DNA from: Thermoplasmata archaeon
Lineage (GTDB): Archaea > Thermoplasmatota > Thermoplasmata > Halarchaeoplasmatales > Halarchaeoplasmataceae
DNA: 39,192 nucleotides
Assembly: GCA_007129655.1 (NCBI GenBank)
Contig: SKVC01000023.1
Span: forward strand, 1-39,192
Direction of reading: 5' to 3'
This document shows, piece after piece, positions 10,969 through 34,605 of the stretch. How positions within the stretch are numbered: the stretch's first letter is position 1; the number at the start of each line of letters is the position of its first letter. Below the pieces are notes generated by a model that did no database searches, was not told where the DNA came from, and saw only the letters and a list, made by a program, of their open reading frames with translations. The position numbers were made by a program, and so were the translations under genes.

Positions 10969-10969
10969 A

Positions 10970-12427: not shown

Positions 12428-12879
12428 AAACTATTTTGATCGGATTAGGCAATCCATTGCTTACAGATGATGCCGTTGGTATCAGAGTCGCTAAATCACT
12501 GGATTCAGAGAGTTGGACGGATGTAGATATCGAAGAGGCTTCGGTAGGTGGTATGGAATTAGTGGAGATGATGCTGGGGTATGAGCGTGTAATTATCGTA
12601 GATTCTATCATCACCGGAAAAAAAGAAGTCGGCACTATTCGCAGGATAACTCCAGAAGATTTTAAGGAAACCCGTAATGTGAGCAACCTGCATAACGTAG
12701 GGTTTTTACAGGCGTTAAAGATTTGGTCTGAAACAGGAGATGACATCATACCCCAGGATATAGTGATCTACGCTGTAGAGGTGGACGATGTTTACACCTT
12801 CTCTGAAACGATGACTCCGAGAGTGGAGGAAGCACTCCCTAAAGTTATCGAACAGGTTCGTGACGAACTAAACAGTTAG
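12424..12879 (+). CDS. Hydrogenase maturation endopeptidase (HycI/FrhD/HybD family)
   Basis: ILIGLGNPLLTDDAVGIRVA (the GNxxxxDD motif). IIVDSI. HNVGFLQAL. Length 151 aa. There is a 4-nt ATGA overlap with mvhA. Confidence 0.8.
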   Translation: MKTILIGLGNPLLTDDAVGIRVAKSLDSESWTDVDIEEASVGGMELVEMMLGYERVIIVDSIITGKKEVGTIRRITPEDFKETRNVSNLHNVGFLQALKIWSETGDDIIPQDIVIYAVEVDDVYTFSETMTPRVEEALPKVIEQVRDELNS

Positions 12880-14813: not shown

Positions 14814-15233
14814 TTAACACTCTTCCTTTAAAGGGTTTGGACCGATTGTTTTTAGAGTACTTACAAATTCCGTGACTACATCTGCAAATTTTTGACCTTC
14901 GGAAGCTGAAATATACTCGAAACGCAACCGGTCGGGATCGATGTTGAAATCCGCAAGTAGTCTCTTTATAAGCATCATCTTTCGGTTTGTTTTGTAATTT
15001 CCTGACTGATAATGACAATCTCCGGGGTGACATCCTGCCACCAGGACGCCATCGATACCTTCCTTAAGGGCATCCAGTACGAATACTGGATCTACCCTTC
15101 CGGAGCACATCACTCTTATCGATCTTATATTATCAGGATATTTTAATCTCGAAGTTCCTGCAAGGTCCGCTCCTGCATAGGAACACCAGTTACACAAAAA
15201 TGCAACTACTGAAGGTTCAAATTCTTTACTCAT
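14814..15233 (-). CDS. mvhD: MvhD / FlpD-type [2Fe-2S] electron-transfer subunit, copy 1
   Basis: [50 protein letters not shown]. There is an 8-nt overlap with the upstream tandem hdrA. Confidence 0.9.
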   Translation of the reverse strand: MSKEFEPSVVAFLCNWCSYAGADLAGTSRLKYPDNIRSIRVMCSGRVDPVFVLDALKEGIDGVLVAGCHPGDCHYQSGNYKTNRKMMLIKRLLADFNIDPDRLRFEYISASEGQKFADVVTEFVSTLKTIGPNPLKEEC

Positions 15234-18200: not shown

Positions 18201-18309
18201 CCGCAAGGTCAAGTGCAGACTGTACACCTGCTATTCCTCCGCCAACTACGGCAACGGCACCGATGGTTTCATTCGCAGACATCGTGACCCTCCTTGAAAT
18301 ATCCTTCAT
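15226..18309 (-). CDS. hdrA: Tandem HdrA-type flavoprotein: an uninterrupted thioredoxin-reductase-like HdrA module with inserted ferredoxin (aa ~17-445) fused to a second, complete HdrA unit (aa ~463-1027)
   Basis: Module 1: [74 protein letters not shown]. Module 2: [14 protein letters not shown] (N-terminal Cys-cluster domain), [23 protein letters not shown], and a C-terminal 2x[4Fe-4S] ([24 protein letters not shown]). An AGGAGG SD sits 6 nt before the second ATG (M10, nt 18282), which is the more likely start. That start would reduce the overlap with the upstream gene to 14 nt. Confidence 0.85.
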   Translation of the reverse strand: [1027 protein letters not shown]

Positions 18310-18946
18310 CTATTGCTATCTCTCGTATGGCAAACATCAATTTTGGTATCTCCACACCCTGGGGACACTGTTCAAAACATCGAAAGTGGGTAGAACATAT
18401 TTCAACGAATTTATTAGCGTAAACCTTATCTTTCATACCAAGAAGGGAAGTTTTGATCACTTTACGTGGAGAATACAATGAATCTAAGTCTCTTTCCGGA
18501 CAACCGGCGGTACAGGTTCCACATGAAAAACAATTGTAGATCTCTTTCCCGGATTCTCCTTCTGCTAATTCGTATTTGAAAGAGGGATCCATACCTTTCT
18601 TTATCTCGTCACCGCACTCGTCCTCTTCTTTCTCATCCTTCAAACGTTCGTTTCGTATCTGATTCATCAAACCCTTTACATTCACTTCCTGAGGACACTT
18701 ATCCAAACATCTGTAATGGGATGAACATACCCATAGAAACTCGGATGATAGAACTTCTTCACGGAGACCCAGGAGTGCCTTTCTAATTATAGTTCTCGCG
18801 TTCCAGTGGTCATCTACGTCCATCTCGGGACACCTTGTTGTGCAGCTTCCACATGCAAAACAGTTCAGTATACCTTCTCCACCTTCCTGTTCCGCTATTT
18901 CGTATTTGAAGTTAACATCTAGTTTCTTGGTATCGATGGAATCCAT
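18269..18946 (-). CDS. Internally duplicated HdrC-like iron-sulfur protein (two HdrC-type repeats)
   Basis: Repeat 1: NCFACGSCTTRCPE..VCSSHYRCLDKCPQ. Repeat 2: NCFSCGTCTAGCPE..ICSTHFRCFEQCPQ. Each repeat carries CxxCxxCxxxCP plus Cx5Cx3CP. The gene starts immediately after the upstream stop (0-nt gap). Confidence 0.7.
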   Translation of the reverse strand: MDSIDTKKLDVNFKYEIAEQEGGEGILNCFACGSCTTRCPEMDVDDHWNARTIIRKALLGLREEVLSSEFLWVCSSHYRCLDKCPQEVNVKGLMNQIRNERLKDEKEEDECGDEIKKGMDPSFKYELAEGESGKEIYNCFSCGTCTAGCPERDLDSLYSPRKVIKTSLLGMKDKVYANKFVEICSTHFRCFEQCPQGVEIPKLMFAIREIAIDEGYFKEGHDVCE

Positions 18947-20044
18947 CTATTTTTCCCCCACATCCAGGAATTCGTCTTCCCTGTACACGATCATTGGCAT
19001 CTCTTCTTCGGGATCTCTTCCAGGTAAGTATTCGAATTCTGCCTGTGCATTCTCGGCTATGGCCGTTATGATATCCATCAAAGGGATATCGGAAGGACAC
19101 GCTTGCTCGCAAAGACCGCACTCTACACAGGAAAGTATCATGTGGTTGAATCTTGTTACATGGAACAACAGGGAATCCGTAGGGGTCTTGTATGCACCTT
19201 TGCTCTTGGCCTTGGCCATGTATTTACTCGCCTCTACATCGAAAACATCACTTTCGAAAAGGCATTCACGACAGTAACATATCGGACAGGCTTTCATACA
19301 GTTGTGACAGTTTACACATGTATCGAAGAATTCAAGTAACTTATCGACACCGGCGATATCCGAATGTTCATCAATGAAAGCTTTTCTTGCCTCATCCCTC
19401 TTATTTCTTATTTCCAGAACGGCTTTTTCCCTGTCCTCCTCGGTGGCAACTTCACTCAATTTCATATCTGAAACCAGTTCCTGTCCATTTTCTGTTCTAG
19501 TATCCAGCAATATTGCTTTATCTGTATCGGCACCGAAGATACCGATTATCATGTCTGCAGTCTCCGGCACAGGATCTTTACAGTTAAGACATGCCGTCCT
19601 CATATTTTCTTCACTTTCTCCTTTCAGTACGACTTCCGTGGGATCATCGTCACCCGGATAGTTAGAATACGTCTTCATGGGGAACGTTCCGGGACAGTCA
19701 ACACCTATAAGCACGATATTTTCCAGGTCGGCCTGCTTCAATTTTAACAATTCAGTCAAAGCTCTTATTTCGCATGCACGAAGAACTACAGCCAAAGGCT
19801 TATCAGAACCTTTTATTTTCGTTAACCTGGATACCATAGCACCGGTTGAAACCGGAAGTAAAGGAGCGAATACGTTGGTATTGAGCTTTTCCGGGTCAGA
19901 TATCATAGTTGGGAACGCGGATTTACCCGAGGGTGTTTCCTGCATTGCCAAAACGGCATCGACTTTACCGCTTTCAAGCAACTGCTTTAAAAAACTGTTC
20001 ACGGTCTTGGGAACATCATCTTCTATCTTTAATTCGTATATCAT
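18947..20044 (-). CDS. FrhB/FdhB- or AsrA-like iron-sulfur protein (365 aa); family assignment tentative
   Basis: The N-terminal half has VVLRACEIRALTELL..IGVDCPGT..CLNCKDPVPETADMIIGIFG, which is reminiscent of the FrhB/FdhB fold. The C-terminal half has CVNCHNCMKACPICYCRECLF (the CPxCxC motif typical of AsrA/sulfhydrogenase-beta-type dicluster domains) and CVECGLCEQACP. Confidence 0.5.
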   Translation of the reverse strand: MIYELKIEDDVPKTVNSFLKQLLESGKVDAVLAMQETPSGKSAFPTMISDPEKLNTNVFAPLLPVSTGAMVSRLTKIKGSDKPLAVVLRACEIRALTELLKLKQADLENIVLIGVDCPGTFPMKTYSNYPGDDDPTEVVLKGESEENMRTACLNCKDPVPETADMIIGIFGADTDKAILLDTRTENGQELVSDMKLSEVATEEDREKAVLEIRNKRDEARKAFIDEHSDIAGVDKLLEFFDTCVNCHNCMKACPICYCRECLFESDVFDVEASKYMAKAKSKGAYKTPTDSLLFHVTRFNHMILSCVECGLCEQACPSDIPLMDIITAIAENAQAEFEYLPGRDPEEEMPMIVYREDEFLDVGEK

Positions 20045-20054
20045 GGTAATACCT

Positions 20055-20501
20055 CTAAATATTCCATTTCTCCTTCATGGGATTCGGGCCGAGTTTCTTT
20101 GTTTCGTTCACTATTTCCTTTACCGTATCGGCAAATTTCTGGCCTTCCGAAGCCGATATCCAACGTAACCATATCCTATCGGGTTCCATTCCAAGAGTGG
20201 TAAGGATGTTCTTCAGCAGAACCATCTTTCTTCTTGCTTTGTAATTCCCATTAATATAATGACAGTCGCCTGGGTGACAGCCACCTATGAGTACGGCATC
20301 GGCACCTTCTAACAATGCTCTGTTCACATATACTGAATCAACCGAACCGGAGCACATCACTCTGATCACTCTTATGTTCGGAGGATACTGTATGCGGCTA
20401 GTACCTGCTAGATCCGCTCCTGCATAGGAACACCAGTTGCAGAGGAACCCGACTATCTTGGGTTCGAAATCTTCATTTTTTTTCTCTTTTTCTTCGCTCA
20501 T
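20055..20501 (-). CDS. mvhD: MvhD / FlpD-type [2Fe-2S] electron-transfer subunit, copy 2
   Basis: [50 protein letters not shown]. About 60 % identical by eye to copy 1. The shared DNA string gctcctgcataggaacaccagtt occurs in both copies. Confidence 0.9.
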
Positions 20502-20512
20502 TTTATCGCTCC

Positions 20513-23500
20513 TTATCTAATACATTCGTCTATCATAGACATGATCTGTCTCTTTGTGAAGGAATTTTGCTGTGCAGTACCGCTGGGACATATGGCGGCA
20601 CAGGCACCGCATCCTTGGCATAATATTTCGTTAACTATCACAATACGTTTTTCTTCATCGTAATCCAATGCATCATACGGACATATGTTGACGCACAGTT
20701 TACATCCGGCACATCTTCTAGAGGCTATATTGGCTACGCTTCCACCGGTTTCAAGGTACTCTTTTGAAAGTATTGTAGCTGCTCTGGACGATGCTGCTCG
20801 TGCCTGAGCTATGGCTTCATCCATGAATCTTGGACTGTGTGCTAAACCGCATAGGAATATACCGTCTGCGGAAAATTCTACCGGTCGAAGTTTCATGTGT
20901 GCTTCCGAGTAAAATCCGTCTGAATTGAGTGGAACCTTCAGCTGCTGGGCCAAGGCGGTGTTTTCTCCGGGTACGACACCTACACTCAGTACAAGTTTAT
21001 CCGGGTTGAGTATCATATCTCTCTGGAGTATCTTATCCTTTGTTTGAACGGTGATCTTACCTTTCTTTAAGTCAACTTGCGGCTCCTCGTTTTCGTCGAA
21101 TTTTATGAAGAAAACACCTTTTCCCCTCGCCTTACGATATAAACTATCTTCTTTGAATCCGTATGTGCGTATATCTCTGTATAATACGTAAACGGAAACA
21201 TCCGGATTGTTTTCTTTCAATCTGACTGCATTCTTAATAGCATTGGAACAGCATATCCTGGAACAGTACGGATGTTCATCGTTCCTTGAACCAACACACT
21301 GTATCATCACTACTTCCTTTAAATCTCCGAGATATTTTTTACCAGACGCTAGATCTTTCTCAAACTCCTTCTGTGTAATGATATTTTCACTATCTTCATA
21401 GGAGTATTCAGTGGGCTCGTAGGCCTCTCCACCGGTGGCTACAACAACGGCTCCATGTTCGATGGTCTCCGTAGTGCCTTCGTGACTTATCCGGGAAGTA
21501 TAATTCCCTACGTATCCATCGATATCTTCCAATATCGCCCCGGTGTAAAGGGATATGTTTTCGTGTTCGGTAGTCTTTGAGATCATTTCTTCAAGTAATT
21601 TTTGAGGATCTTCGTCTCCGATACCAAGGTGCACATCCCGTGATAAACCGCCGAGTTCTTCCTCCCTTTCTATCAGATAAACATCGAATCCCTGGTCCGA
21701 CAAGGCTATGGCTGAAGACATACCGGAAATACCTCCACCGATGACCAGTGCCTTTTGGACAACAGGGAATTTTTCGTGTGAAACCGCCCTCATCTCATTT
21801 ACCCTTACAACACCCATGGCAACGGTTTCTTTTGCCTTTTCCGTAGCCAAAACCGGATTATCTCTATGTACCCAGGAATTCTGGTCTCTTAGATTGACCA
21901 TCTCGAAAAGATGCGGATTCAATCCGGCTTCCCTAAGAGTATCCTGGAAGAGCGGTTCGTGTGTTCTCGGTGTGCATGAAGCCACTACTATCCTATTGAG
22001 ACCCAATTCGTTAATCCTCTCCTTTATCCGTTCCAAAGAGTCCTGCGAACATGAAAAGGTCTCGTCGTCGGCCAGTGCAACGTATGGAAGCCTCTGCACA
22101 TATTCTTTTACTTTCTGTATGTCTATAATTCCGCCTATATTGATACCGCAGTGGCAAAGGAACACACCTGTTCTTGGGAATTCGTTGCTAACATCCCTCT
22201 CTCGCGGATATTCTTTTGTTGTAACTTCACTTCCTCTGGCATCCTTTATATCTCTAGCTGCAATGGCTGCTGCTGCTGAAGCTTCGATCACACTTTCGGG
22301 TATATCCTTTGGCTCTGTAGCGGAACCGGAAGCGTATATTCCAGATCTTGAAGTTTCAACATTATAATAGGGATCGACCTCTATGAATCCATAACCGTTG
22401 AGATTTACATTGACTATGGATGCAAGATCCGGAAGTGTATCGCAAGGCTGCATACCTACGGCAAGTACCACCATATCATAGCTTTCTATTTCTACATCTC
22501 CGTTATCGTTGATGTATCTTACACTCAGCTCTCCGGTCTCACGGTTTTGCTCGATACGAGGTACTCTTGACCTTCTGAAAACTACACCGTACTCATCCTC
22601 TGCCCGTTCGTAATATCTTTCGAAATCCTTGCCGAAGGTCCTCATATCCATGAAATAAATGTGTGTGTCTAAGCCCGGAAGATGTTCTTTTGCTATCACA
22701 GCCTCCTTTATGGAGTACATACAGCAAACCGACGAGCAGTATTTATGGTCACAGCTTTCGTCCCTGGAACCTATACATTGTAACCATGCTATCTTCTTAG
22801 GTTCTTCACCATCGGAAAGGCGTTTTATATGTCCCTGAAAAGGTCCCGATGCGGAAAGCATCCTCTCGAATTCCAGGGAGGTGAGTACATTTGGGTACAA
22901 CCCGTATCCAAGACTGTCTCCTTCTGGTGGTTCATATACATCGGCCCCGGGTGAAAGTATTACAGAACCTATATTGATATTGATATCTTCGTCTTCCTGG
23001 TCGTACAATATTGCTTCCGGTTCACAGAAATTTTCACACGATTTACACGTACCGTTCAAGGCATACATGCAGGCGTCCTTGTCTATGATCGGAACGTTCG
23101 GTATCGCTTGTGGAAACGGTATATGTACTGCTTTACGCTCCGCCAGGCCTGCGTCGTAATCACTTAAAAGGGGTTCCGGTGTTTGTGTACTTATCTCTGA
23201 GAGGTCTATACACTGGGTAGGACAGACAAATGCACACGCACCGCAGGTGGTGCACACATCCGAGTGTTCCTGAAATGGAGGTATTACCTCTCTAGCTGCA
23301 CCTCTATTGGCGAAACCGATGGCTCCTACTCCCATGACCTGTTCACATACATTTACACACAGACCACATAAGATACATTTTTCATTTGGCTCTGTATAAG
23401 TTTTAAACCGTGAGCTATCCACACCTAGCTTACTTGCAACTTCCTTTAGTTCGCTCGATTCCGGACATCTAGCTAGATAGAGTTCCATCAAAATTTTTCT

Positions 23501-23752
23501 TGATCTATCGATCCTTGGCGAACTAGTCTTTATCTCCATACCCTCTTTAATAAGTAAACTACATGATGCCGTTACCTTAGTCCATCCTTTTTGTGTTACT
23601 CCCACAACGCAGAGCCTGCATGCACTGTAAGGCTCCACGGATGGATGATGACATAGTGTTGGGATAAAAACATTGTTTCGTTTGGCAACGTCCAAAACCG
23701 TCTCTCCAGGTATAGCCTCGTATTCCTTTGAATCTATTGTGATCATGACCAT
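20513..23752 (-). CDS. Fusion protein: NuoG/HydA-N-terminal-like FeS domain (aa 1-~198) + C-terminal part of an HdrA-type flavoprotein module (aa ~199-520) + complete HdrA unit (aa ~526-1079)
   Basis: NuoG-like part: [2Fe-2S] C34-x10-C45-x2-C48-x13-C64 ([17 protein letters not shown]), then [12 protein letters not shown] and [12 protein letters not shown]. The usual His/Cys3 cluster motif looks degenerate (LARCPESS). HdrA-C fragment: [74 protein letters not shown]. Full HdrA: [72 protein letters not shown] lies 6 nt upstream of the ATG, which abuts the nuoF-like stop. Confidence 0.85.
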
Positions 23753-25615
23753 TTAGGTCACCTCCACCGCGTTAAACTTGCAAGCATCGTGGCAAAGCCC
23801 GCATTTGATACATATCTCTTGGTCTATCTCATGAACTTTCTTTGCTTCACCGGATATCGCTTCTACCGGGCATTTCTTTGCACACAATTGACAACCGACG
23901 CAGTTATCGGCATCGATACTAAATTCGATAAGTGCTTTGCACACCTTAGCAGGGCATTTTTTATCAGATATATGGGCATCGTACTCATCTCTAAAATATC
24001 GTAGTGTGGTAAGTACGGGATTGGGGGCTGTTGCACCTAGCTGACACAGCGATGTGTCTTTAACTACTTCTGCTAACTCTTCCAGTAATTCGATATCCCC
24101 CTCTTTACTCTTACCTTCTGTGATATCGGTCAACAAACCATACATCTGTACCAGTCCTTCACGACATGGAGTACATTTACCGCACGACTCATTTTTCAGG
24201 AAGTTAACAAAATACTTGGCCACATCCACCATACATGTACCTTCGTCCATCACGATCATACCACCGGAACCCATCATGGCTCCGGCATCTGTAAGACTGT
24301 CGTAATCGATTGGAAGGTCCATATGTTCTTCAGGTATACATCCTCCGGAAGGACCACCTATCTGGATAGCCTTGAATTTTTTATCATCCTTGATCCCTCC
24401 TCCGATGTCGAACACAACATCCCTAAGTGTTATTCCCATAGGAACTTCAACAAGACCGGTATTGTTTACTTTACCAACTAATGAAAAAATTTTAGTTCCT
24501 TTAGACCCCTCGGTACCGATTTTACTGTACCAGTCACTGCCCTTATTAACAATAAGCGGGACATTTGCCCATGTTTCCACGTTGTTAAGAACCGTGGGCC
24601 TATTCCATAATCCGCTTTGGGTACTGTGTATGTGTTTGACCCTTGGTTCACCGGGTCTTCCCTCGATTGATGCTGTAAGTGCGGTAGATTCACCGCAAAC
24701 GAAAGCTCCGCCGCCTTTTGCGATCTTTACATCAAATGAAAAATCACTGCCGAGAATGTTTTCGCCAAGTAAACCTAATTCTCTTGCACTTTGGATCGCC
24801 TTCTCGAAGTACTCGACAGCCAAGGGATATTCCGCTCTCACATAGATGTAGCCGTGTTCCGCACCAATAGCATAGGCGCCGATTATCATACCCTCAAGAA
24901 CGCTATGTGGATTACCCTCCAGAAGGCTCCGATTTGCATATGCACCCGGATCCCCTTCGTCTGCGTTACAGATAACATATTTTATCCCGTCTTCCGAGGT
25001 ACTATTATATGCTGCTTCCCACTTTCTCCCCGTTGGAAAACCGGCTCCTCCGCGTCCTCTAAGACCTGACTCTTTGATTGTATTGATAATATCCGACGAA
25101 GGAATTTGTTCTTCTAATATATGTACAAGTGCTTTATACCCCTTGATGGAGATATAATCTTCTATACGAGTAGGATCTATCAACTCGTTATACCCGAACA
25201 GAAGTCTTTCTTGGCTACTATAAAACGGAATATCCTTTTCGTATTCCAATGTTTTGTTAGATTTGGGGTCGGTGTACAGTAGTTCTTCTATTATCTTACC
25301 CTCTTTGATGGTTTCCGAAATGATCCGTTCAATGTGTTCCGGTTTTACTGTCTTATAAAAAATATTTTTGGGCTGTATTAATACGATCGGACCTTGCTCG
25401 CAGAATCCATGACATCCGGTGGGGAGTACTGATATATCAGTTATATCTTGTTTTTTCAGTTCATCCATAAGGAGGTTTGTTATCTTTTTACCTTTTAGGG
25501 CGTTGCAACCTGTTCCATTACAAACGGTAATCAACCGCCTGTTGGGATCTCTTTTATTTGTAACCTTTTCCTGTAACGTATAGAAATCCTTGTGATTCTT
25601 AAGCACTTTATTCAA
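23753..25615 (-). CDS. NuoF/HydB-like NAD(P)H-binding FMN iron-sulfur flavoprotein (bifurcating-hydrogenase beta-subunit architecture)
   Basis: The N-terminal thioredoxin-like [2Fe-2S] is VCNGTGC..GCHGFCEQGP. The core has GLRGRGGAGFPTGRKWE, VICNADEGDPGAY, GGGAFVCGESTAL and ESCGKCTPCREG. The C-terminus has KCPAKVCKAL plus 2x[4Fe-4S] (CVGCQLCAKKCP, CIKCGLCHDAC). The track start is a TTG at 25615. A GTG at 25606 lies 9 nt after a GGAGG SD, which is a better start and removes the overlap. Confidence 0.9.
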   Translation of the reverse strand: MNKVLKNHKDFYTLQEKVTNKRDPNRRLITVCNGTGCNALKGKKITNLLMDELKKQDITDISVLPTGCHGFCEQGPIVLIQPKNIFYKTVKPEHIERIISETIKEGKIIEELLYTDPKSNKTLEYEKDIPFYSSQERLLFGYNELIDPTRIEDYISIKGYKALVHILEEQIPSSDIINTIKESGLRGRGGAGFPTGRKWEAAYNSTSEDGIKYVICNADEGDPGAYANRSLLEGNPHSVLEGMIIGAYAIGAEHGYIYVRAEYPLAVEYFEKAIQSARELGLLGENILGSDFSFDVKIAKGGGAFVCGESTALTASIEGRPGEPRVKHIHSTQSGLWNRPTVLNNVETWANVPLIVNKGSDWYSKIGTEGSKGTKIFSLVGKVNNTGLVEVPMGITLRDVVFDIGGGIKDDKKFKAIQIGGPSGGCIPEEHMDLPIDYDSLTDAGAMMGSGGMIVMDEGTCMVDVAKYFVNFLKNESCGKCTPCREGLVQMYGLLTDITEGKSKEGDIELLEELAEVVKDTSLCQLGATAPNPVLTTLRYFRDEYDAHISDKKCPAKVCKALIEFSIDADNCVGCQLCAKKCPVEAISGEAKKVHEIDQEICIKCGLCHDACKFNAVEVT

Positions 25616-26510
25616 CCTCCTTTTTTATCTCGTTGATGAAATCGTCTACTTTTGATGGTAATACGGGGTAATATTCATCATCCACCACTACTACAGGGCC
25701 TAAAGCACAGGCACCAAGGCAGTTAACGGCTTCGAGAGAAAATAAACCATCTTCGGTAGTTTCACCCGGTTTGATCCTTAATTTACGTTCGATCTCATCC
25801 AGCACCCTGGGACTTCCTCTGACATGACAGGCGGTACCCATGCAAACTTTGATGGTATGTTTTCCACGTGGTTCTAAAGAAAATGATGTGTAAAAAGTAA
25901 CAACATGATATACTTGTGAAAACGGTATCCCCAATTCCTGTGATACATATCTTAGAATATCTTTGGGTAGATACCGGTACTCTTCATTGATGGCCTGCAT
26001 TATCGGTATCAGTGATTCGTTTTCCCTTCCATGTTTCTTAAAAAGTTCGTCAACCTTATCGATGTTCTTTTGTTCAATATCCTGCCTTGCATCACGTGGT
26101 TCAGGTATCTGAGGTTTGTACCTAACCAAGCAGTTCTCAACGCAAAGGCCACAACCATTACATAACTCTTCGTCGATGGACCTAGCACGCTTGTTTATGG
26201 TAGCTGTGAAATCACCGGGCTCGCCTTCAAGTTTTATCAGATCTGAATTGGTGATTATCTCTATATTCGGGTGTCTACCGGTGGCTACGAGTTTGGGAGC
26301 TAAAATACACATGGAACAATCATTAGTTGGAAAGGTCTTGTCTAATTGAGTCATCCTTCCGGCAATGGATAAACCTTTATCAACGAGGTAAACCTTGAAA
26401 CCGGAATCCGCAAGGTCCAATGAAGATTGAATGCCGGATATTCCTCCGCCAACAACCATGACCGAGCCTTTTACTGATTTATTTTCTATTATTGTTTCTT
26501 CAGATGCCAT
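25608..26510 (-). CDS. Fusion protein: N-terminal part of an HdrA-type FAD module (aa ~15-127) + NuoE/HydC-like thioredoxin-like [2Fe-2S] domain (aa ~160-300)
   Basis: HdrA-N fragment: [64 protein letters not shown]. NuoE part: [51 protein letters not shown] SD lies 8 nt upstream. The ATG is 1 nt after the hdrA stop. Confidence 0.85.
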   Translation of the reverse strand: [300 protein letters not shown]

Positions 26511-26511
26511 C

Positions 26512-28476
26512 TTAGATCACCTCGTCTATCATCCTCAGGATTTGTTGTTTGGTCATGTTCTTGTGTATGCAAGCATTCGACGGGCATGCAGCGATACAAC
26601 CACCACAACCGGTACACAATATTTCATCTACCTCTGCGATACCGGTGACTTCGTTCAACTCTCTAGCTGAATAGGGGCATACCTCAACACACACACCGCA
26701 ACCCACGCACATGTCCGGGTCTACCCATGCTATCATGGGGTCGCTTTCCAGTTCTTCACGGCTGATTATACCCATGGCCTTTGCAGCAGCTCCGCTTGCC
26801 TGTGCGACCACATCGGGTATATCTTTAGGTCCTTGACAGCATCCTGCGATGAAGACGCCGTCGGTGGTGGTATCGGAGGGCTTTAGCTTTGGATGTGATT
26901 CAAGGAAGAAACCATCGGCTCCTTCGGTTATCCTCAGAATCCTGCTCAGTTCACTAGAATCATTTCTAGGTATCAGTGGAGGTACCAGCACTATAATATC
27001 AGAATTTATTTCAAGTAGTTTTTGTGTGGAAGTATCGAAGATATTGTAGATCAGTTTACCATCCTCTTTTACATTTATCTCTGAGGGACGGCCTCTGATG
27101 AAATTTGATTTGCCGTCTCTTATCCTACGATAGAATTCCTCATAACCTTTACCAAAAGAACGTATATCGGTATAACATATGTTTATCTCCAAGTCTTCAC
27201 CCATATGATCTCTCAACAAATATGCCTGCTTTAGAGCACTCATGCACCCTATACGACAGCAGTATTCCTTGTGATCCATATCCCTAGAGCCGGCACATAG
27301 TACGAAAGAAACACTCTTTATCTCTTCACCATCGGATAAACGATGCACATGACCACTGGTGGGGCCGGAAGAGCTGATCAGCCTTTCAAACTCCAGGTTG
27401 GTGATGATATCGGGGCTTTGACTGTAGCCGTATTCGTACATATCGCTGGCTTCCAGCATGTCGTATCCTGTGGCTACTACGATACTTCCCACGTTAAGTT
27501 CTATCATCTTTTCCTCTTGCTGGTAGTCTATGGCTCCCAGTTCACATACATCTTGGCAGGGTGGGCTGTCTCCACATTTACCGCTGAGTAGCATTAAACA
27601 CTTGGATGGGTCGATGGTGTATTTCAATGGTACCGCCTGTTGAAATGGTACGTAGATCGCTGAGCGTTTGCCCAACCCTTCGTTAAATTTATCTAAAACT
27701 TTGTCTTTCATACGGCATACCTGTCCACACTCGCCGCATCCGTTGCACTTTTCCCAATCAACGTAGGTGGGTTTTCGTTTTACCTTTACCTTGAAATCTC
27801 CGACGCTACCGTCTACTTCGGTAACCTCTGAGTATGTGAGCAATTCAATATTCGGATGCCTGGCGACGTCCATCATCTTAGGAGTTAATATGCAGGAAGA
27901 ACAGTCCAAAGTCGGGAAGGTTTTGTCCAACTGGGCCATACGCCCTCCGATACTGGGCTCCCGCTCGACCAAGTAAACCTTTTTACCGGTATTAGCTAGA
28001 TCAAGGGAGGCTTGAATACCGGCTATGCCGGCACCGATGACCAATGCATCGTGGACCACATCTTTTTGGAAGCTGGTCAGGGCTTCAAGGGTATTTGCCT
28101 TCCTAACAGCCATGGCCACAAGGTCCTTCGCCTTCTTAGTTGCCTCTTCTTTTTCATCCTTGTGTACCCAAGAACAGTGCTCTCTGATATTCGCCATCTC
28201 CAGGCAAAATCGATTAAGTCCGGCATCTTCTATGACCGATTGGAAGGTTGGTTCGTGCATACGCGGACTGCATGACGTGACGACGATACGGTTCAAGTCG
28301 TGCTCCTCTATTGCATCCTTGATCACCTTTCCACCGGGATCCGAGCACATATACTTGTAATCCGCTGCGTAAACAACGTCGTCTAACTCTGAAGAGAATT
28401 TGACTAAGTCGTCAACGTCAACCACTCCTCCTATATTGGTTCCGCAGTGGCAGATGAAAACACCGATTCTTGCCAT
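26512..28476 (-). CDS. hdrA: Heterodisulfide reductase subunit A, canonical four-domain form (654 aa)
   Basis: MARIGVFICHCGTNIGG (N-terminal cluster domain). VIGAGIAGIQASLDLA. DKTFPTLDCSSCIL. Inserted ferredoxin (CNGCGECGQVC). NLEFERLISSSGP. YCCRIGCMSA. C-terminal CVGCGVCVEVCP and CTGCGGCIAACP. An AGGAGGAGG SD lies within the end of hdrB. Confidence 0.9.
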   Translation of the reverse strand: MARIGVFICHCGTNIGGVVDVDDLVKFSSELDDVVYAADYKYMCSDPGGKVIKDAIEEHDLNRIVVTSCSPRMHEPTFQSVIEDAGLNRFCLEMANIREHCSWVHKDEKEEATKKAKDLVAMAVRKANTLEALTSFQKDVVHDALVIGAGIAGIQASLDLANTGKKVYLVEREPSIGGRMAQLDKTFPTLDCSSCILTPKMMDVARHPNIELLTYSEVTEVDGSVGDFKVKVKRKPTYVDWEKCNGCGECGQVCRMKDKVLDKFNEGLGKRSAIYVPFQQAVPLKYTIDPSKCLMLLSGKCGDSPPCQDVCELGAIDYQQEEKMIELNVGSIVVATGYDMLEASDMYEYGYSQSPDIITNLEFERLISSSGPTSGHVHRLSDGEEIKSVSFVLCAGSRDMDHKEYCCRIGCMSALKQAYLLRDHMGEDLEINICYTDIRSFGKGYEEFYRRIRDGKSNFIRGRPSEINVKEDGKLIYNIFDTSTQKLLEINSDIIVLVPPLIPRNDSSELSRILRITEGADGFFLESHPKLKPSDTTTDGVFIAGCCQGPKDIPDVVAQASGAAAKAMGIISREELESDPMIAWVDPDMCVGCGVCVEVCPYSARELNEVTGIAEVDEILCTGCGGCIAACPSNACIHKNMTKQQILRMIDEVI

Positions 28477-28478
28477 GT

Positions 28479-29354
28479 TCAGTCCTCCTCCTTGGAACCG
28501 AGCTTATCAACCGGGCTTTTGTTTAAGTGTAAACCTAGTGCCTCTGGTTCTTTACCCATGGCCAGACCGAGTAACTGTATATAATAAATAACCGGTATAT
28601 TCAACGAAGCGCCGACTGTTTGTCCCGCGCTGTCCTGTTTTGTGTCGAACATCCGCTGTCCCCATGGACACATGGTGGTCATCCCGTCGAATCCATGGTT
28701 TTGTACGGCTTCCAGCTTCTGTCCGGTCTTGGTAAGGGCGGATTCCTGTTCATTCAATAGAATGTGGGCACCGCAGCAGTCCAATTTTTCGTTGTAGTAA
28801 TCACTCTCAGCACCGATTGTTTTTAGCAAAGTCTCAAGCTTCTGTGGATTCTCCGAATCGTCAGGTCTGGGAATATCGTTGGGACGGATAAGATGACAGC
28901 CGTAGTGTGCGGCTATGTTGAGCCCTTCTAAGGGCTCTTTGATATGCTCTTTGATTACTTCTGTACCGATTTCATCATGTAGAAGATCTAAAAGATGGTA
29001 ATGCTTTACCTTGCCTTTGTACTCCAACCCTTCTTCTTTAAGATAAGAATTTACCTTTTCCTTTAAAGTCGGATTTTTATCTAATACATCCTTAGCTTCT
29101 GAGATCGCTTGGTGACAATATGGACAAGGCGCCAAGATATCAAGTCCCTCCTTCTCGAAGAGAGCGATATTTCTAGCTGATAAGTACATAGTTAAAGACA
29201 GGTTGATGTGCCTCAATGGTGCACCACAGCAGGCCGGCCCCTCGATATCAACTAACTCCGTACCAAGCTCCGGTAATACTTCTCTGATGGCCAGTTCGTA
29301 TGCATACTGTTCCGTTGGTATCAAACATCCAAGGTATAATCCGATTTTTTCCAT
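28479..29354 (-). CDS. hdrB: Heterodisulfide reductase subunit B (two CCG domains, the second one degenerate)
   Basis: CCG domain 1 has C10, C42-C43 (ACCGAP) and C77-x2-C80 (CPYC). CCG domain 2 has C153, C193-C194 (DCCGAH) and C229-x2-G232 (CPWG, nt 28659-28670, tgt cca tgg gga). Confidence 0.85.
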   Translation of the reverse strand: MEKIGLYLGCLIPTEQYAYELAIREVLPELGTELVDIEGPACCGAPLRHINLSLTMYLSARNIALFEKEGLDILAPCPYCHQAISEAKDVLDKNPTLKEKVNSYLKEEGLEYKGKVKHYHLLDLLHDEIGTEVIKEHIKEPLEGLNIAAHYGCHLIRPNDIPRPDDSENPQKLETLLKTIGAESDYYNEKLDCCGAHILLNEQESALTKTGQKLEAVQNHGFDGMTTMCPWGQRMFDTKQDSAGQTVGASLNIPVIYYIQLLGLAMGKEPEALGLHLNKSPVDKLGSKEED

Positions 29355-29361
29355 GTTTTAT

Positions 29362-29892
29362 TCACCTCAGCGTCTCCGTAGCAGCCTTCATCAGCACCTG
29401 CTGTAATTTAGGCATCTCTTCGGGTCCTTTTATTTTCGGTAGCCCCATATCATCTCTCGTTACGGCGTTATTTTCTCTATCCACCACTTCTTTCGGGGAT
29501 TGAATAAATCCCGTTCCTAAAACAGCTTGTAGCATATTCGAATAACCTGAATCAATCTGTTTACCGGATGATACAGCGATGTTCTTCACGGCAAAGATAA
29601 CATCTACTGGAGCCAGATCTTGAGGACATCTTTCTTTACATTTTAAACAGGTAACGCATGTCCATATCTCACCGGAGTTCAACAACTCGTCGATGAATCC
29701 TGATTTGGAGAGGGCCATCACCTTGTGCGGCTCCAGTTCGGTCAATATGAAGGCTTCGCAACCAGACGTGCATTTACCGCATTGGTAACAGTCGTGGGGG
29801 ATGTCCTCCTGCAAACCTTTGATTATGTCGTTTATTTTCTTTTGTGCTTCGCCTTCCGGCTCGGCCATAGATGTAAGGTCGATTATGCTCAT
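29362..29892 (-). CDS. hdrC: Heterodisulfide reductase subunit C
   Basis: CYQCGKCTSGCE and CVTCLKCKERCP (2x[4Fe-4S]-type motifs). Length 176 aa. It lies 7 nt upstream of hdrB. Confidence 0.85.
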   Translation of the reverse strand: MSIIDLTSMAEPEGEAQKKINDIIKGLQEDIPHDCYQCGKCTSGCEAFILTELEPHKVMALSKSGFIDELLNSGEIWTCVTCLKCKERCPQDLAPVDVIFAVKNIAVSSGKQIDSGYSNMLQAVLGTGFIQSPKEVVDRENNAVTRDDMGLPKIKGPEEMPKLQQVLMKAATETLR

Positions 29893-32883: not shown

Positions 32884-33840
32884 CTAAGCCATTTTTTCTT
32901 TGATAGCTGCAGTGAGCTTAGGAAGTACCTCGTAAAGGTCTCCTACCAATCCATAGTCTGCGGATTTAAATATCAACGCTTCAGGATCCTTGTTTATAGC
33001 TACGATGATGTCCGAATCCCGCATACCGGCGATGTGCTGTATCTGGCCCGAGATACCTATGGCGATATACACCTTGGGTTTTACCTTATGGCCTGAGAGG
33101 CCTATCCAGTGATCCTCAGTAAACCATTTCATATCCGCTGAAAGCGGTCTTGAACATCCCAGGGTTTCTCCGGGTAGTAGTCTTGCCAACTCTTCGGCCA
33201 TCTTAGTATCTTCCTTATTTTTGAAACCTCTACCGCAGGAAACTATGGAAGTTGCCGCTTCGACGTTGACTCCTTCCGACTCCATCACCTGTATGTTGGT
33301 TATCTCTGAAGGGAAAGTTTTGTAATCTACACTTTCTTTTGTTACCTCCCCGGTTCTTGAGCTATCTGCAGGTAGAGGATCGTAGAGTTTAGAAGGTATA
33401 GTCATGATATGAGGCTTGCCGGTGAATTGCTCAACAGCGATGGCATTACCGCTGTAAACTACACGTTCCGTGGTCAACTCACCGTCTTTAAAGTATATAT
33501 CCGTGCATCCGGTAACGCAACCGGTGTTAAGCATCGCCGCCAGTCTGGGAGCTAGCTCGTTTCCATCCTTGTTGGAACCTATCATGATAGTTTCCGAGCC
33601 TAGCTTTTCCGCTATATTAGCGATCATCTGTGTGTATTCCTCAACCTTGAAGTTTTTCAGATCAGTTTCGGCAACGAATACCTTGTCCGCACCGTGCTGT
33701 ATGTATTCATCCGCTTCGTCTTCGCCTATCAATACAACTGTGACTTCCTTACCCTGTTCATCAGCTAGTTCTCTTCCCTTTGCCAACATCTCTAAGGTAA
33801 GGTTTTTTTCGTTAGAATATATCAATACCATCTTTATCAC
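32884..33840 (-). CDS. etfA: Electron transfer flavoprotein alpha subunit
   Basis: Typical EtfA C-terminal FAD domain (VSCGRGF..LGCSRPL..W..GLSGHKVKPKVYIAIGISGQIQHIAGM..IVAINKDPEA.IF..ADYGLVGD). No N-terminal ferredoxin domain. The track start is a GTG at 33840. The ATG at 33831 lies 6 nt after a GGGGTG SD and is the likelier start. Confidence 0.9.
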   Translation of the reverse strand: MIKMVLIYSNEKNLTLEMLAKGRELADEQGKEVTVVLIGEDEADEYIQHGADKVFVAETDLKNFKVEEYTQMIANIAEKLGSETIMIGSNKDGNELAPRLAAMLNTGCVTGCTDIYFKDGELTTERVVYSGNAIAVEQFTGKPHIMTIPSKLYDPLPADSSRTGEVTKESVDYKTFPSEITNIQVMESEGVNVEAATSIVSCGRGFKNKEDTKMAEELARLLPGETLGCSRPLSADMKWFTEDHWIGLSGHKVKPKVYIAIGISGQIQHIAGMRDSDIIVAINKDPEALIFKSADYGLVGDLYEVLPKLTAAIKEKMA

Positions 33841-34604
33841 CCCAGAGCTCCCGATTTAGCAAGATTGTCAACAAGCTCTTTGATGCCTTCGTCGATATCA
33901 TCTTTGTAGATGACGTTCTTTCTCTCCATGGCTACACCCTTTATATCTGATATCTTCGTTCCTGCTTCTACCTCAGCTTCAAGAGAGGACGGGTCTATGG
34001 TCTCTATGGGCTTGTTAGCCGCACCGAGTATCTCCATCAAGCTGGGTAATCTCGGTTCGTTGATCTCCTTTGTAACTGTTAGTAAAACCGGATATGGCGA
34101 TTCAACGGTTACCTTTTTACCACTAAGATCCCTATCTGCTGTGAGCTTATCTGCCTCAGCATCTACATTTTTAGCATAGGTGATCTGCGGTATATCGAGT
34201 TTCTGAGCTACACGGGGCCCCATCTGTCCCGAGAAAAGATCTATCGAGGCTTCTCCGCATAAAACCATATCGTACTCCATACCGTTGATAACGGCGGCGA
34301 GTAAGTTGGAAACCACGTTGTAATCTCTGGTATCGTCCAGAGGGATGATCTTAGCTTCGTCGGCACCCATGGCCAGCAATTCTTTTATGTATTCCCTGGC
34401 CTCCGAAGGCCCTACGCTGACTACGGTAACCTTACCGCCGAGTTTTTCCTTTATCTTTACAGCCTCTTCGACTGCGTTCTTATCTATATCACTTATCTTC
34501 TTGTCGATACCCTGAAGGATCGGTTTGTTCGTCTTCGGGTCTACTTTTATTTGAGAAACGTCCAGTACTTCTTTTGCACACACTACAATATTCATGATCA
34601 ACAC
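33837..34604 (-). CDS. etfB: Electron transfer flavoprotein beta subunit
   Basis: MNIVVCAKEVLDVSQIKVD..VTVVSVGP..LAMGADEAKII..VLCGEASID, the typical EtfB pattern. The track start is a GTG at 34604. The ATG at 34595 (MNIVVC) lies 6 nt after a GAGGTG SD and is the likelier start. Confidence 0.9.
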   Translation of the reverse strand: MLIMNIVVCAKEVLDVSQIKVDPKTNKPILQGIDKKISDIDKNAVEEAVKIKEKLGGKVTVVSVGPSEAREYIKELLAMGADEAKIIPLDDTRDYNVVSNLLAAVINGMEYDMVLCGEASIDLFSGQMGPRVAQKLDIPQITYAKNVDAEADKLTADRDLSGKKVTVESPYPVLLTVTKEINEPRLPSLMEILGAANKPIETIDPSSLEAEVEAGTKISDIKGVAMERKNVIYKDDIDEGIKELVDNLAKSGALG

Positions 34605-34605
34605 C

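Follow-up and report, generated by a model that had tools for sequence, protein, structure and literature searches.

Flavin-based electron bifurcation rests on four module types, and the combination of such modules has been experimentally visible only since the structure of class II benzoyl-CoA reductase (BCRII) became available in 2026. A pairing of HydBC with HdrA in one enzyme is known for BCRII (Schut 2022, PMC9304861; Appel et al., bioRxiv 2026), and the BCRII structure frames this coupling as a special solution for benzene-ring reduction. The present study concerns a stretch of 39,192 nucleotides from a Thermoplasmata archaeon (contig SKVC01000023.1 of assembly GCA_007129655.1; hereafter the window), in which three abutting genes on the minus strand join the same two modules in another manner: one HdrA-type flavoprotein is genuinely encoded as two pieces, which flank a HydBC/Bfu-type NADH/ferredoxin module and are fused to it. 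This arrangement, which recurs among numerous archaea and bacteria that live anaerobically, probably joins two energy-coupling flavin sites in one enzyme.

In solved HdrA-type complexes, MvhD brings mid-potential electrons to the flavin, the cluster beside the thioredoxin reductase-like (TrxR) domain leads to HdrC/B, i.e., the high-potential arm, and the inserted ferredoxin domain serves as low-potential exit and partner docking site, as for BamC/B in BCRII (bioRxiv 10.64898/2026.04.10.717634). For HdrA9-11 of ANME-1, an NAD(P)H-binding NfnB/GltD-like module has been described inside the HdrA inserted ferredoxin domain (Chadwick et al. 2022). The functionalities listed for the Bfu family are FeFe, NiFe, Fdh, Nfn, F420, Por, Codh, Wor, Bam, Rub, Mbh, and Nuo (Schut 2022, PMC9304861). 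Co-localized nuoEFG, mvhD, hdrA, and etfAB genes were listed for Desulfotignum phosphitoxidans (2013) without the split being noticed, and recent studies of metagenome-assembled genomes (MAGs) have taken 'HdrABC-MvhD' and 'NuoEFG' as separate complexes. No description of the split-and-insert arrangement was found in full-text literature searches, the coverage of which did not extend to the HdrA review of Appel et al. 2021; a preceding reading of the DNA letters (the original prediction) had likewise taken it as not known to be described.

Two HdrA pieces flanking a HydBC/Bfu-type cassette

In transcription order, the three genes are P1 (26510-25608, 300 amino acids (aa)), in which an HdrA N-terminal piece is followed by HydC/NuoE; P2, a NuoF of the HydB/BfuB type; and P3 (23752-20513, 1079 aa), which combines a NuoG N-terminus, the remainder of the split HdrA, and a second HdrA. 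An open reading frame (ORF) scan bore out the coordinates of the three ORFs as first read. The mechanical ORF list opens P2 at a TTG (25615-23753, 620 aa); its likely start is the GTG at 25606, which lies 2 bases past the P1 stop and gives the length of 617 aa (23753..25606) that is found in independent assemblies.

The HdrA portions were mapped by profile, by sequence comparison with the Protein Data Bank (PDB), and by alignment to P4 (15226..18309, minus strand), an intact fused HdrA dimer in the same window that serves as the unsplit reference paralogue. P1 aa 1-133 (26112..26510) are the N-terminal piece of the HdrA TrxR-like domain for flavin adenine dinucleotide (FAD): aa 7-132 correspond to positions 132-258 of the 777-position HdrA2 model NF040770, aa 12-130 match residues 149-267 of HdrA 8rvu_a (3.6e-42), and aa 1-127 align with P4 aa 10-129 at 55% identity (5e-44). 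The other piece, with the second half of the inserted ferredoxin domain and the rest of TrxR domain 1 (TrxR1), is found in P3 aa 191-520 (22193..23182), where aa 189-500 correspond to HdrA2 positions 251-558 and the PDB match restarts at HdrA residues ~251-265; P3 aa ~199-1074 and P4 aa 137-1014 form a single collinear alignment at 45% identity. Because the matches of P1 and P3 to the profile, the PDB entries, and P4 are complementary, no HdrA segment has been lost or duplicated, and NF040770 positions 132-558 are covered by the two chains jointly and by neither alone. Neither P1 nor P3 scores above the cut-off of any NCBIfam model (for NF040770, the cut-off is 1100 bits, with 147 for P1 and 773 for P3). 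P3 aa 521-1079 (20513..22192) are a second, unsplit HdrA unit by profile, PDB, and P4 matches, which consists of an HdrA N-terminal domain, a TrxR domain 2 (TrxR2) without inserted ferredoxin domain, and a C-terminal 2x[4Fe-4S] domain. The original prediction had divided the three proteins in this way and had taken the two fragments for complementary parts of one HdrA; the profile coordinates, P4, and the sequences of solved HdrA structures agree with it on both counts.

In unsplit HdrA, the inserted ferredoxin domain reads C-x2-C-x2-C-x3-C-P, ~6 residues, F-(D/E)-x-G-L, PQAIPN, and C-x(n)-C-x2-C-x3-C. The break falls in the ~6-7-residue loop right behind the first cysteine motif, i.e., where it had originally been placed: the HdrA part of P1 ends with C117NGC120GLC123VENC127, and P3 restarts at (F/Y)DxGL (~aa 199) and carries the second motif (C227, C236, C239, and C243, in C236KSC239ENFC243). 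P1 also holds GGGISG, i.e., the FAD motif GxGxxG, and a segment ending in 65SMC68, so that the FAD motif sits on another chain than the rest of its TrxR-like domain, which includes an invariant R-T-F-G-K motif in the TrxR1 part of P3. A phmmer/BLAST alignment of P3 C167-C177 with the first inserted-ferredoxin motif was rejected as a motif-level artefact, since these cysteines form part of an entire BfuA dicluster domain (Fer4_21, aa 123-184), a gap of 14 residues has to be opened for the match, and the true first motif is on P1.

The module between the HdrA pieces starts with P1 aa 134-300 (25608..26111, stop codon included), where a linker of ~20 aa leads into a HydC/NuoE/BfuC-like thioredoxin-fold [2Fe-2S] domain (aa 154-295, 2Fe-2S_thioredx (NuoE/HoxE), PF01257, 1.5e-49; aa 147-297 against HydC 7p5h_C, 1.5e-47). 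P2 matches nuoF_fam at 1.5e-143 and comprises an N-terminal thioredoxin-like [2Fe-2S] domain, the core for flavin mononucleotide (FMN) and NADH, an NADH_4Fe-4S domain, and a C-terminal 2x[4Fe-4S] ferredoxin domain. Its aa 5-617 align end to end and at 760-780 bits with 7t2r_B, 8a6t_B, and 9mqx_B, which are the B subunits of structurally characterized bifurcating enzymes (NiFe-HydABCSL, HydB, and WOR-Bfu, respectively), as compared with ~370 bits and the core only for Nqo1 of complex I; by these alignments, P2 is a full HydB/BfuB of the bifurcating type. P3 aa 1-190 (23183..23752; HoxU/NuoG-N by profile, aa 1-183) are a BfuA/BamI/HoxU-like NuoG N-terminus, the best match of which is the 247-aa BfuA of 9mqx (9mqx_A, 9e-35). 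It holds one [2Fe-2S] cluster (C34, C45, C48, and C64) and 2x[4Fe-4S] (C125-C135 and C167-C177), and a motif of the HxxxCxxCxxxxxC type (His-ligated A2 cluster) was not seen between the [2Fe-2S] and CxxCxxCxxxC motifs, where the sequence reads 'LARCPESS'. The cluster set of BamI is likewise limited to [2Fe-2S] and 2x[4Fe-4S] (Appel et al., bioRxiv 2026). Judged by sequence, the C-terminal part of P1, P2, and the N-terminal part of P3 appear to make up a full BfuC-BfuB-BfuA set as defined by Schut et al. 2022 (PMC9304861), for which bifurcating activity is predicted; Pfam and NCBIfam domains and the HydB-type alignments are thus in line with the intact E-F-G' cassette of HydBC/Bfu type that had been proposed.

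At both gene junctions (P1/P2, AAGGAGGTTGAATAAAGTG; P2/P3, GGAGGTGACCTAAATG), a Shine-Dalgarno sequence (GGAGGT or GGAGGTGA) is followed by the TAA of the preceding gene and, within 1-3 nt, by the start codon. A Shine-Dalgarno sequence and a start codon at each boundary had been correctly noted before, with the former placed after the stop codon instead of ahead of it, which is a trivial correction. The junctions look tight and translationally coupled, and this bears on the possibility that the locus is an artefact or a product of decay, namely, a frameshift, a chimeric assembly, or an hdrA pseudogene that was broken by a mobile nuoEFG operon and left non-functional fragments. Nothing was found in favor of it, although the evidence comes mostly from MAGs, which is its weak point. 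An identical 300-aa P1 lies between the same HdrA and NuoF genes on eight contigs of different assemblies, including two separate NCBI assemblies and a Logan assembly of SRA data; the gene order is kept in 18 archaeal and bacterial genomes at 48-63% identity (best segment) in a locus scan that took one genome per species and matches to the whole fusion; each fusion protein is represented by >120 clusters; and catalytic and ligand residues are invariant. The comparative data refute the artefact or pseudogene explanation, which is given next to no credence here, and they bear out the real gene architecture for which the original prediction had argued.

Ligand conservation was assessed in 17 P1-type and 15 P3-type orthologues extracted from genomes, together with 24 paired rows. 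Invariant in these orthologues are the 4+4 cysteines of the inserted ferredoxin domain, GxGxxG (as GGGISG), one 12-residue segment, the [2Fe-2S] ligands of the BfuA type, and the two CxxCxxCxxxC motifs of BfuA. Across phyla, identity amounts to 53-70% in the HdrA-N fragment versus 43-61% in the fused NuoE domain; on this measure, the fragment is under stronger constraint. The TrxR1 part of P3 has no GxGxxG beta-alpha-beta element of its own, and therefore, directly from the sequence, it would be unable to bind FAD without P1. In the standard 2x[4Fe-4S] ferredoxin fold, the fourth cysteine of each motif ligates the other cluster; therefore, with P1 C127 and P3 C243 as the ligands that cross between the chains, each cluster of the inserted ferredoxin domain would be held by three cysteines of one chain and one cysteine of the other. 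The strongest comparative argument for non-covalent reassembly is a free N-fragment of 124 aa, found in a fissioned bacterial variant (L084-L086, described below), the gene content of which shows that the HdrA-N fragment would work there as an independent polypeptide. From the invariant motifs on both chains, the constraint on the N-fragment, and this free form, which together support the earlier proposal, we infer that one FAD module is rebuilt from two chains. The further claim that each half is covalently tied to a subunit of the NADH module holds for the window type and fails for the fissioned variant, in which the N-fragment has no tie to NuoE.

Distribution and architectural variants

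The 18 loci come from Thermoplasmatota, Altiarchaeales, Spirochaetia, Stahlbacteria, Verrucomicrobiota, Desulfobacterales, and unclassified MAGs, i.e., from at least six phyla. In every sufficiently long locus, the order is [HdrA-N|NuoE] - NuoF - [NuoG-N|HdrA-C|HdrA#2], usually with MvhD next. The clusters of each fusion protein (>120) were counted at 90% identity in a collection of 5.8 billion proteins, and the named sources of the P3 type include Planctomycetota, Aminicenantes, Aerophobetes, Desulfatiglandales, Chloroflexota, Bacteroidota, Thermoprotei, and Promethearchaeota. An exhaustive search of 1.84 billion representatives at 50% identity returned about eight complete representatives, plus fragments, that cover both halves of P1; by sequence, the P1 homologues are one compact family with two size classes. 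Annotations at the source are generic, e.g., 'NAD(P)H-dependent oxidoreductase subunit E' or 'FAD-dependent oxidoreductase'. Two of the loci show irregularities: in L012, a gap of ~0.66 kb with stop codons lies between nuoF and the P3-type gene, and in L002 (a Thermoplasmata MAG), the HdrA-N match in tblastn begins 12 nt upstream of the stop-free ORF (~2163-2175), which implies that the P1-type gene has a stop codon in frame, or a recoded one, close to its N-terminal end.

Five architectural variants were distinguished, namely, (a) the window type, which has a fused-HdrA-dimer backbone; (b) a form with a canonical-HdrA backbone; (c) a fully fissioned form; (d) a single-chain form with additional ferredoxin units; and (e) a form with an enlarged NuoF. 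Variant (b) is found on a Promethearchaeota (Asgard) contig (JBHLLX010000001.1; L087, 504-3818 and 3843-14916). Its cassette consists of a 421-aa [HdrA N-domain|TrxR-N|NuoE] protein, NuoF, and a 587-aa [NuoG-N|TrxR-C|C-terminal ferredoxin] protein, directly followed by MvhD, MvhG, MvhA, and an HdrA-MvhD fusion. Directly upstream are an NfnA-like gene and an HdrA of the HdrL type (1104 aa, with an NfnB-like insertion), where we take 'HdrL' to be the name for large HdrA proteins with an NfnB-type insertion; two different HdrAs that bear NAD(P)H modules are thus adjacent in this archaeon. The 421-aa gene was overlooked by the gene caller.

Variant (c) is bacterial and occurs on 23 contigs (L084-L086). 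The free 124-aa HdrA-N protein (L084 3651-4025; also in L085 and L086) has a stop codon that overlaps the start of nuoE (ATGA), and it is followed by NuoE, NuoF, a 532-aa [NuoG-N|TrxR1-C] protein, a separate 533-aa second HdrA, and MvhD. An FdhA-like molybdopterin subunit (579 aa in L084, 676 aa in L085), an FdhB/FrhB-like protein, and a second NuoE-NuoF pair lie beyond MvhD, and a sigma-54 activator with PAS domains lies upstream of the L084-type operon. In L086 (10222-10746), MvhD was called as two ORFs and reads as one frame with an in-frame TGA at the first cysteine of GGCHPG(D/E)CHY; going by this sequence, it is very likely a selenocysteine MvhD, as in BamF.

Variant (d) was found at six loci of Desulfobulbales and Myxococcota (L046, L051, L052, L073, L075, and L079). 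Here, a single-chain fused HdrA dimer of ~1215-1290 aa (e.g., L046 7974-11615) carries an insertion of ~190 aa with two extra 2x[4Fe-4S] ferredoxin units in the same loop as the window split; homology to the BfuA dicluster domain of P3 extends over the second of these units and its linker. The genes stand in the order HdrC-HdrB-[HdrA dimer]-MvhD, with no NuoE or NuoF nearby, and no description of such single-chain polyferredoxin-insert dimers was found in the full-text literature searches. Variant (d) may be an intermediate toward the split form or a derivative of it. Variant (e) is represented by L016 (8810-11986), where an otherwise typical split cassette has a NuoF of 1059 aa, the own C-terminal ferredoxin domain of which is replaced or extended by a GltD/NfnB-like (Fer4_20 + Pyr_redox_2) module; this would add a third flavin and probably a site for NADPH.

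A neighbor-joining tree of 96 TrxR1 modules (422 columns, 100 bootstraps) is unresolved, with all distances at 0.6-0.77 and the split forms grouped in 1 out of 100 replicates, and therefore the HdrA part speaks neither for nor against the split having arisen once. The single-chain dimers of variant (d) are monophyletic in all 100 bootstraps of the same tree. One protein of the representative search, P0252 (1504 aa, HdrL type), has HdrA parts that are 64-78% identical to P1 and P3 of the window, and is thereby closer to them than most split-family homologues and than the window paralogue P4 (45-55%). These identities suggest that NAD(P)H modules have been exchanged on one HdrA backbone among close relatives.

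Neighboring genes and possible electron routes

The cassette is part of a long gene string on the minus strand, which starts with acyl-CoA dehydrogenase, EtfB, and EtfA (32884..35745) and continues with thiolase, 3-hydroxyacyl-CoA dehydrogenase, and enoyl-CoA hydratase. Then follow an HdrC-like (176 aa) and an HdrB-like protein (two CCG domains, 291 aa), which are candidates for the high-potential arm (28479..29892), and a canonical 654-aa HdrA (26512..28476) directly upstream of P1 and translationally coupled to it. Downstream of P3, the string comprises an MvhD/FlpD-like [2Fe-2S] adaptor (20055..20501), an FrhB/FdhB-like protein with 2x[4Fe-4S] (p365; 18947..20044), a tandem HdrC-like 2x(2x[4Fe-4S]) protein (p225; 18269..18946), P4, a second MvhD/FlpD-like protein (14814..15233), and an acyl/acetyl-CoA synthetase. 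Convergent with this string, i.e., on the plus strand, are genes for the small and large subunits of a [NiFe]-hydrogenase (9988-12427) and a maturation protease (together 9988..12879), a candidate MvhG/MvhA partner of MvhD. With beta-oxidation/electron transfer flavoprotein (ETF) genes on one side and an Mvh-type hydrogenase on the other, the position of the cluster suggests that it helps to balance H2, NADH, ferredoxin, and acyl-CoA-derived electrons.

Several further features of the region were recorded. The genes behind the split cassette (14814-20044: FrhB-like, tandem HdrC-like, P4, and second MvhD) amount to a second Hdr set, which recurs in Stahlbacteria (L011, L015, and L018) and, without the HdrC-like gene, in Thermoplasmata L003. 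Beside the hydrogenase genes (8527-9867, minus strand) lies a 446-aa pyridine nucleotide-disulfide oxidoreductase with a dimerization domain, a fold common to lipoamide dehydrogenase, glutathione reductase, and related enzymes. The plus strand further encodes a 1523-aa ORF (178-4749) with only a marginal MG2 (alpha-2-macroglobulin-like) match and a 1233-aa ORF (4820-8521) with helix-hairpin-helix, several zinc-ribbon, and C-terminal TPR domains. In the region of these two ORFs, GC skew is strongly positive (~0.2-0.33 from ~4 to 8 kb), and GC content is lower, at 36-38%, between 6 and 8 kb.

The partner genes are only partly constant among the loci. The closest genome relative, L001 (Thermoplasmatota), has the same EtfA-HdrC-HdrB-HdrA-P1-P2-P3 order. 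Among the 14 loci that reach far enough, MvhD comes next after the cassette in 12; an FrhB-like protein follows MvhD in several loci, and an HdrC-like homologue stands next to the cassette in 13 of 18; HdrB is present in the window, L001, L010, and L016. A donor module lies right behind MvhD in L008 and L087 (MvhGA) and in L084-L086 (FdhA and FdhB-like). No HdrB or HdrC was found within 7 kb of the cassette in the Asgard locus L087.

These neighborhoods bear on an explanation with a single bifurcation site, according to which the locus would encode an ordinary Bfu-type bifurcating hydrogenase or formate dehydrogenase, with bifurcation confined to the HydBC flavin/cluster site (H2 or formate + NAD+ + Fdox <-> NADH + Fdred, where Fd is ferredoxin) and HdrA as a non-bifurcating two-electron/one-electron adaptor that plugs Mvh or FdhA into BfuA through MvhD. 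The donor modules right behind MvhD and the Asgard neighborhood fit this explanation; moreover, in their potential, H2 and formate are typical third substrates of Bfu enzymes (Schut 2022, PMC9304861), and the second FAD of the fused HdrA dimer in BCRII is non-bifurcating, so that HdrA-type flavins need not bifurcate. However, HdrC-like or HdrBC genes adjoin the cassette in most loci and in the window, and known NiFe-Bfu and Fdh-Bfu enzymes work without a flavoprotein adaptor. In addition, TrxR1 of the split unit keeps features of bifurcating HdrA, namely, the CSMC pair and an invariant lysine in R-(T/A)-F-G-K, whereas TrxR2 of P3 and of P4 are without that register, a difference that, by analogy, parallels the bifurcating/non-bifurcating FAD pair of BamE. 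On balance, an adaptor role for HdrA is considered unlikely.

Our preferred reading, to which a probability of roughly 0.55 is assigned, is that BfuA connects the Bfu core to the low-potential arm of the HdrA flavin, which would make a two-flavin enzyme. In this proposed 'Hdr-Bfu' redox module, the ~130 N-terminal HdrA residues of P1 would meet the remaining HdrA of P3, and the two pieces would form one TrxR-like FAD domain and one inserted ferredoxin domain. P1 and P3 would double as BfuC (HydC/NuoE) and BfuA (NuoG-N/BamI-like) of the NAD(H)/ferredoxin module, with P2 as the FMN subunit. Only ~20 residues separate the first inserted-ferredoxin motif from the HydC helical bundle, and a stretch of again ~20 residues lies between the last BfuA cluster motif and the HdrA junction. 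With the last dicluster domain of BfuA this close to the junction, the wire would run from FMN via the HydB [4Fe-4S] cluster, the BfuA clusters, and the composite inserted-ferredoxin clusters to the HdrA FAD. MvhD would be the mid-potential port, connected to Mvh [NiFe]-hydrogenase, an FdhA-type formate dehydrogenase, or the FrhB-like protein depending on lineage, and the C-terminal domain of HydB would be the ferredoxin port. HdrC-like or HdrBC proteins, in the window beside the EtfAB and acyl-CoA dehydrogenase genes, would provide the high-potential arm, perhaps with ETF. The complex would thus connect H2/formate, NAD(H), ferredoxin, and a high-potential couple in a reversible manner via two flavin sites in series. 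Counted by domains and by analogy with HdrA and BamE, P1-P2-P3 would bind 2 FAD, 1 FMN, three [2Fe-2S], and roughly ten [4Fe-4S] clusters. The data establish the architecture of the genes, the identities of the domains, the complementarity of the HdrA pieces, the conservation of the ligands, and the distribution; beyond these, we infer physical reassembly, wire order, direction of electron flow, and substrates.

Several points weigh against this wiring. The wire order is deduced from chain connectivity and from analogy with BCRII and HdrA structures, and BCRII joins the same modules otherwise (BamI, C-terminal ferredoxin domain, MvhD, FAD), so that gene topology need not dictate electron topology. 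At loci like the Asgard one, which are without HdrB/HdrC within 7 kb, the high-potential arm, and hence bifurcation at HdrA, may not be universal. There is no obvious energetic rationale for feeding very low-potential electrons into an NAD+-reducing Bfu core. Finally, a re-joined chimera (P1 1-133 + P3 195-520) that was modeled with AlphaFold2 on the single sequence without alignment reached a predicted local distance difference test score (pLDDT) of 31.7 and a predicted template modeling score (pTM) of 0.23, which are too low to be informative.

A further rival is BCRII-like wiring, in which electrons of NADH and reduced ferredoxin would be confurcated by HydBC and would enter the HdrA flavin at the mid-potential port, with MvhD and the C-terminal ferredoxin domain on the second HdrA as the path; the composite inserted domain would then be a free low-potential exit, and the fusions would be a mere scaffold. 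This is the arrangement resolved experimentally in the only characterized HydBC+HdrA enzyme, MvhD and the C-terminal ferredoxin domain are conserved in the split loci, and the BfuA part shares the cluster complement of BamI. Nevertheless, the two ~20-residue spacings pin the Bfu module beside the inserted ferredoxin domain, and MvhD has donor modules of its own (MvhGA and FdhA/FdhB-like), which suggests that the mid-potential port is already occupied; such wiring is regarded as improbable.

If the Bfu core is instead wired to the low-potential arm as preferred here, a bolder proposal may be made, which is offered tentatively and with more doubt than confidence, namely, that the split forms are a 'serial bifurcation' family. 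In its members, the low-potential output of HdrA would be hard-wired via an inter-subunit ferredoxin domain into the third-substrate port of Bfu, giving a four-port machine for H2/formate, a high-potential acceptor (disulfide or ETF), NAD(H), and ferredoxin, with wiring unlike that of BCRII and misparsed in metagenomic reconstructions as 'HdrABC-MvhD' plus 'NuoEFG'. The proposed family would span Asgard archaea, Thermoplasmatota, Altiarchaeales, Spirochaetota, Planctomycetota, Desulfobacterota, and other groups.

Relation to known HdrA and Bfu systems

The distribution suggests that the pairing of HydBC with HdrA is common and phylogenetically broad, and that it is differently wired at the low-potential arm of HdrA; the arrangement is widespread, overlooked, and, as it appears, mechanistically distinct from the one characterized HydBC+HdrA enzyme. 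The split family thus offers a second natural design in which the communication between two bifurcation sites can be tested. Ferredoxin and FAD domains that would be composed from a pair of chains, both of which carry a subunit of another module as fusion partner, are also an unusual case of split-and-insert evolution. Current annotation as independent soluble NuoEFG and Hdr has consequences for the metabolic modeling of Asgard archaea, benthic Thermoplasmatota, sulfate reducers, and syntrophs.

BCRII, i.e., Bam[(BC)2DEFGHI]2 of Geobacter metallireducens, has the same parts, namely, HydBC-type BamG/H with BamI, the fused HdrA dimer BamE, the MvhD BamF, and the HdrBC-like BamD. ETF is its high-potential acceptor, and etfAB stand at the head of the same gene string in the window; BamF is a selenocysteine MvhD, as is likewise predicted in the split variant L086. 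BCRII differs in that BamG is a plain HydC, BamI is small and separate, and BamE is unsplit, so that the link is non-covalent and runs via BamI, the C-terminal ferredoxin domain, and MvhD, i.e., the mid-potential entry, whereas in the split cassette, BfuC and BfuA each carry one HdrA half, with the fusion at the inserted ferredoxin domain, i.e., the low-potential arm. A Pfam scan of 30 window ORFs (all but one of those of at least 250 aa outside nested reverse frames) revealed no tungsten aldehyde oxidoreductase (BamB) and no separate BamC-type ferredoxin; the screen of the related loci was limited to tblastn with proteins of the window. An assignment to class II benzoyl-CoA reductase was rejected, as no BamB/BamC appeared in the window scans and the equivalents of HydC and BamI are fused to HdrA halves.

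In the methanogen complexes MvhADG-HdrABC and FdhAB-MvhD-HdrABC, MvhD, an HdrA FAD with inserted and C-terminal ferredoxin domains, HdrBC, and a hydrogenase or formate dehydrogenase donor recur, and the corresponding Mvh/Fdh-Hdr gene set is present in the window (MvhD, HdrB, HdrC, and [NiFe] hydrogenase). The inserted ferredoxin domain of the methanogen complexes reduces free ferredoxin or polyferredoxin, whereas that of the split family would be made of two chains and is fused to an NAD(H)/ferredoxin module, in hosts that are mostly non-methanogens. The polyferredoxin-insert HdrA dimers of variant (d) share the insertion loop, the unit homologous to the BfuA dicluster, and the HdrC-HdrB-[HdrA dimer]-MvhD skeleton with the split forms; they differ in being one polypeptide without NuoE, the NuoF core, and the [2Fe-2S] domain.

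The Bfu family (Schut et al. 2022, PMC9304861) has the conserved BfuABC cofactor domains and, in its 'Type 1', a catalytic domain C-terminal on BfuA, as here; no listed functionality has HdrA fused to BfuA or part of a partner domain fused to BfuC. The name 'F420-Bfu' (Schut 2022, PMC9304861) was rejected as a prior name for the arrangement, as it stands for BfuA with an F420-reducing domain in Methanosaetaceae. In the HdrA-NfnB/HdrL type, an NAD(P)H flavoprotein also interrupts the inserted ferredoxin domain, with two potential bifurcation sites. That type is a single polypeptide with an NfnB/GltD-like part (FAD, NADPH; Fer4_20 + Pyr_redox_2) as opposed to a three-subunit FMN HydBC/Bfu cassette, and its insertion lies ~35 residues downstream of the split site, right before the second cysteine motif instead of right after the first. 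An insertion in the identical loop was therefore rejected in favor of a neighboring loop of the same domain. By comparison with all of these, the split arrangement is an extension of known kinds, namely, Bam-Bfu and HdrA-NfnB/HdrL, and not a categorically new system.

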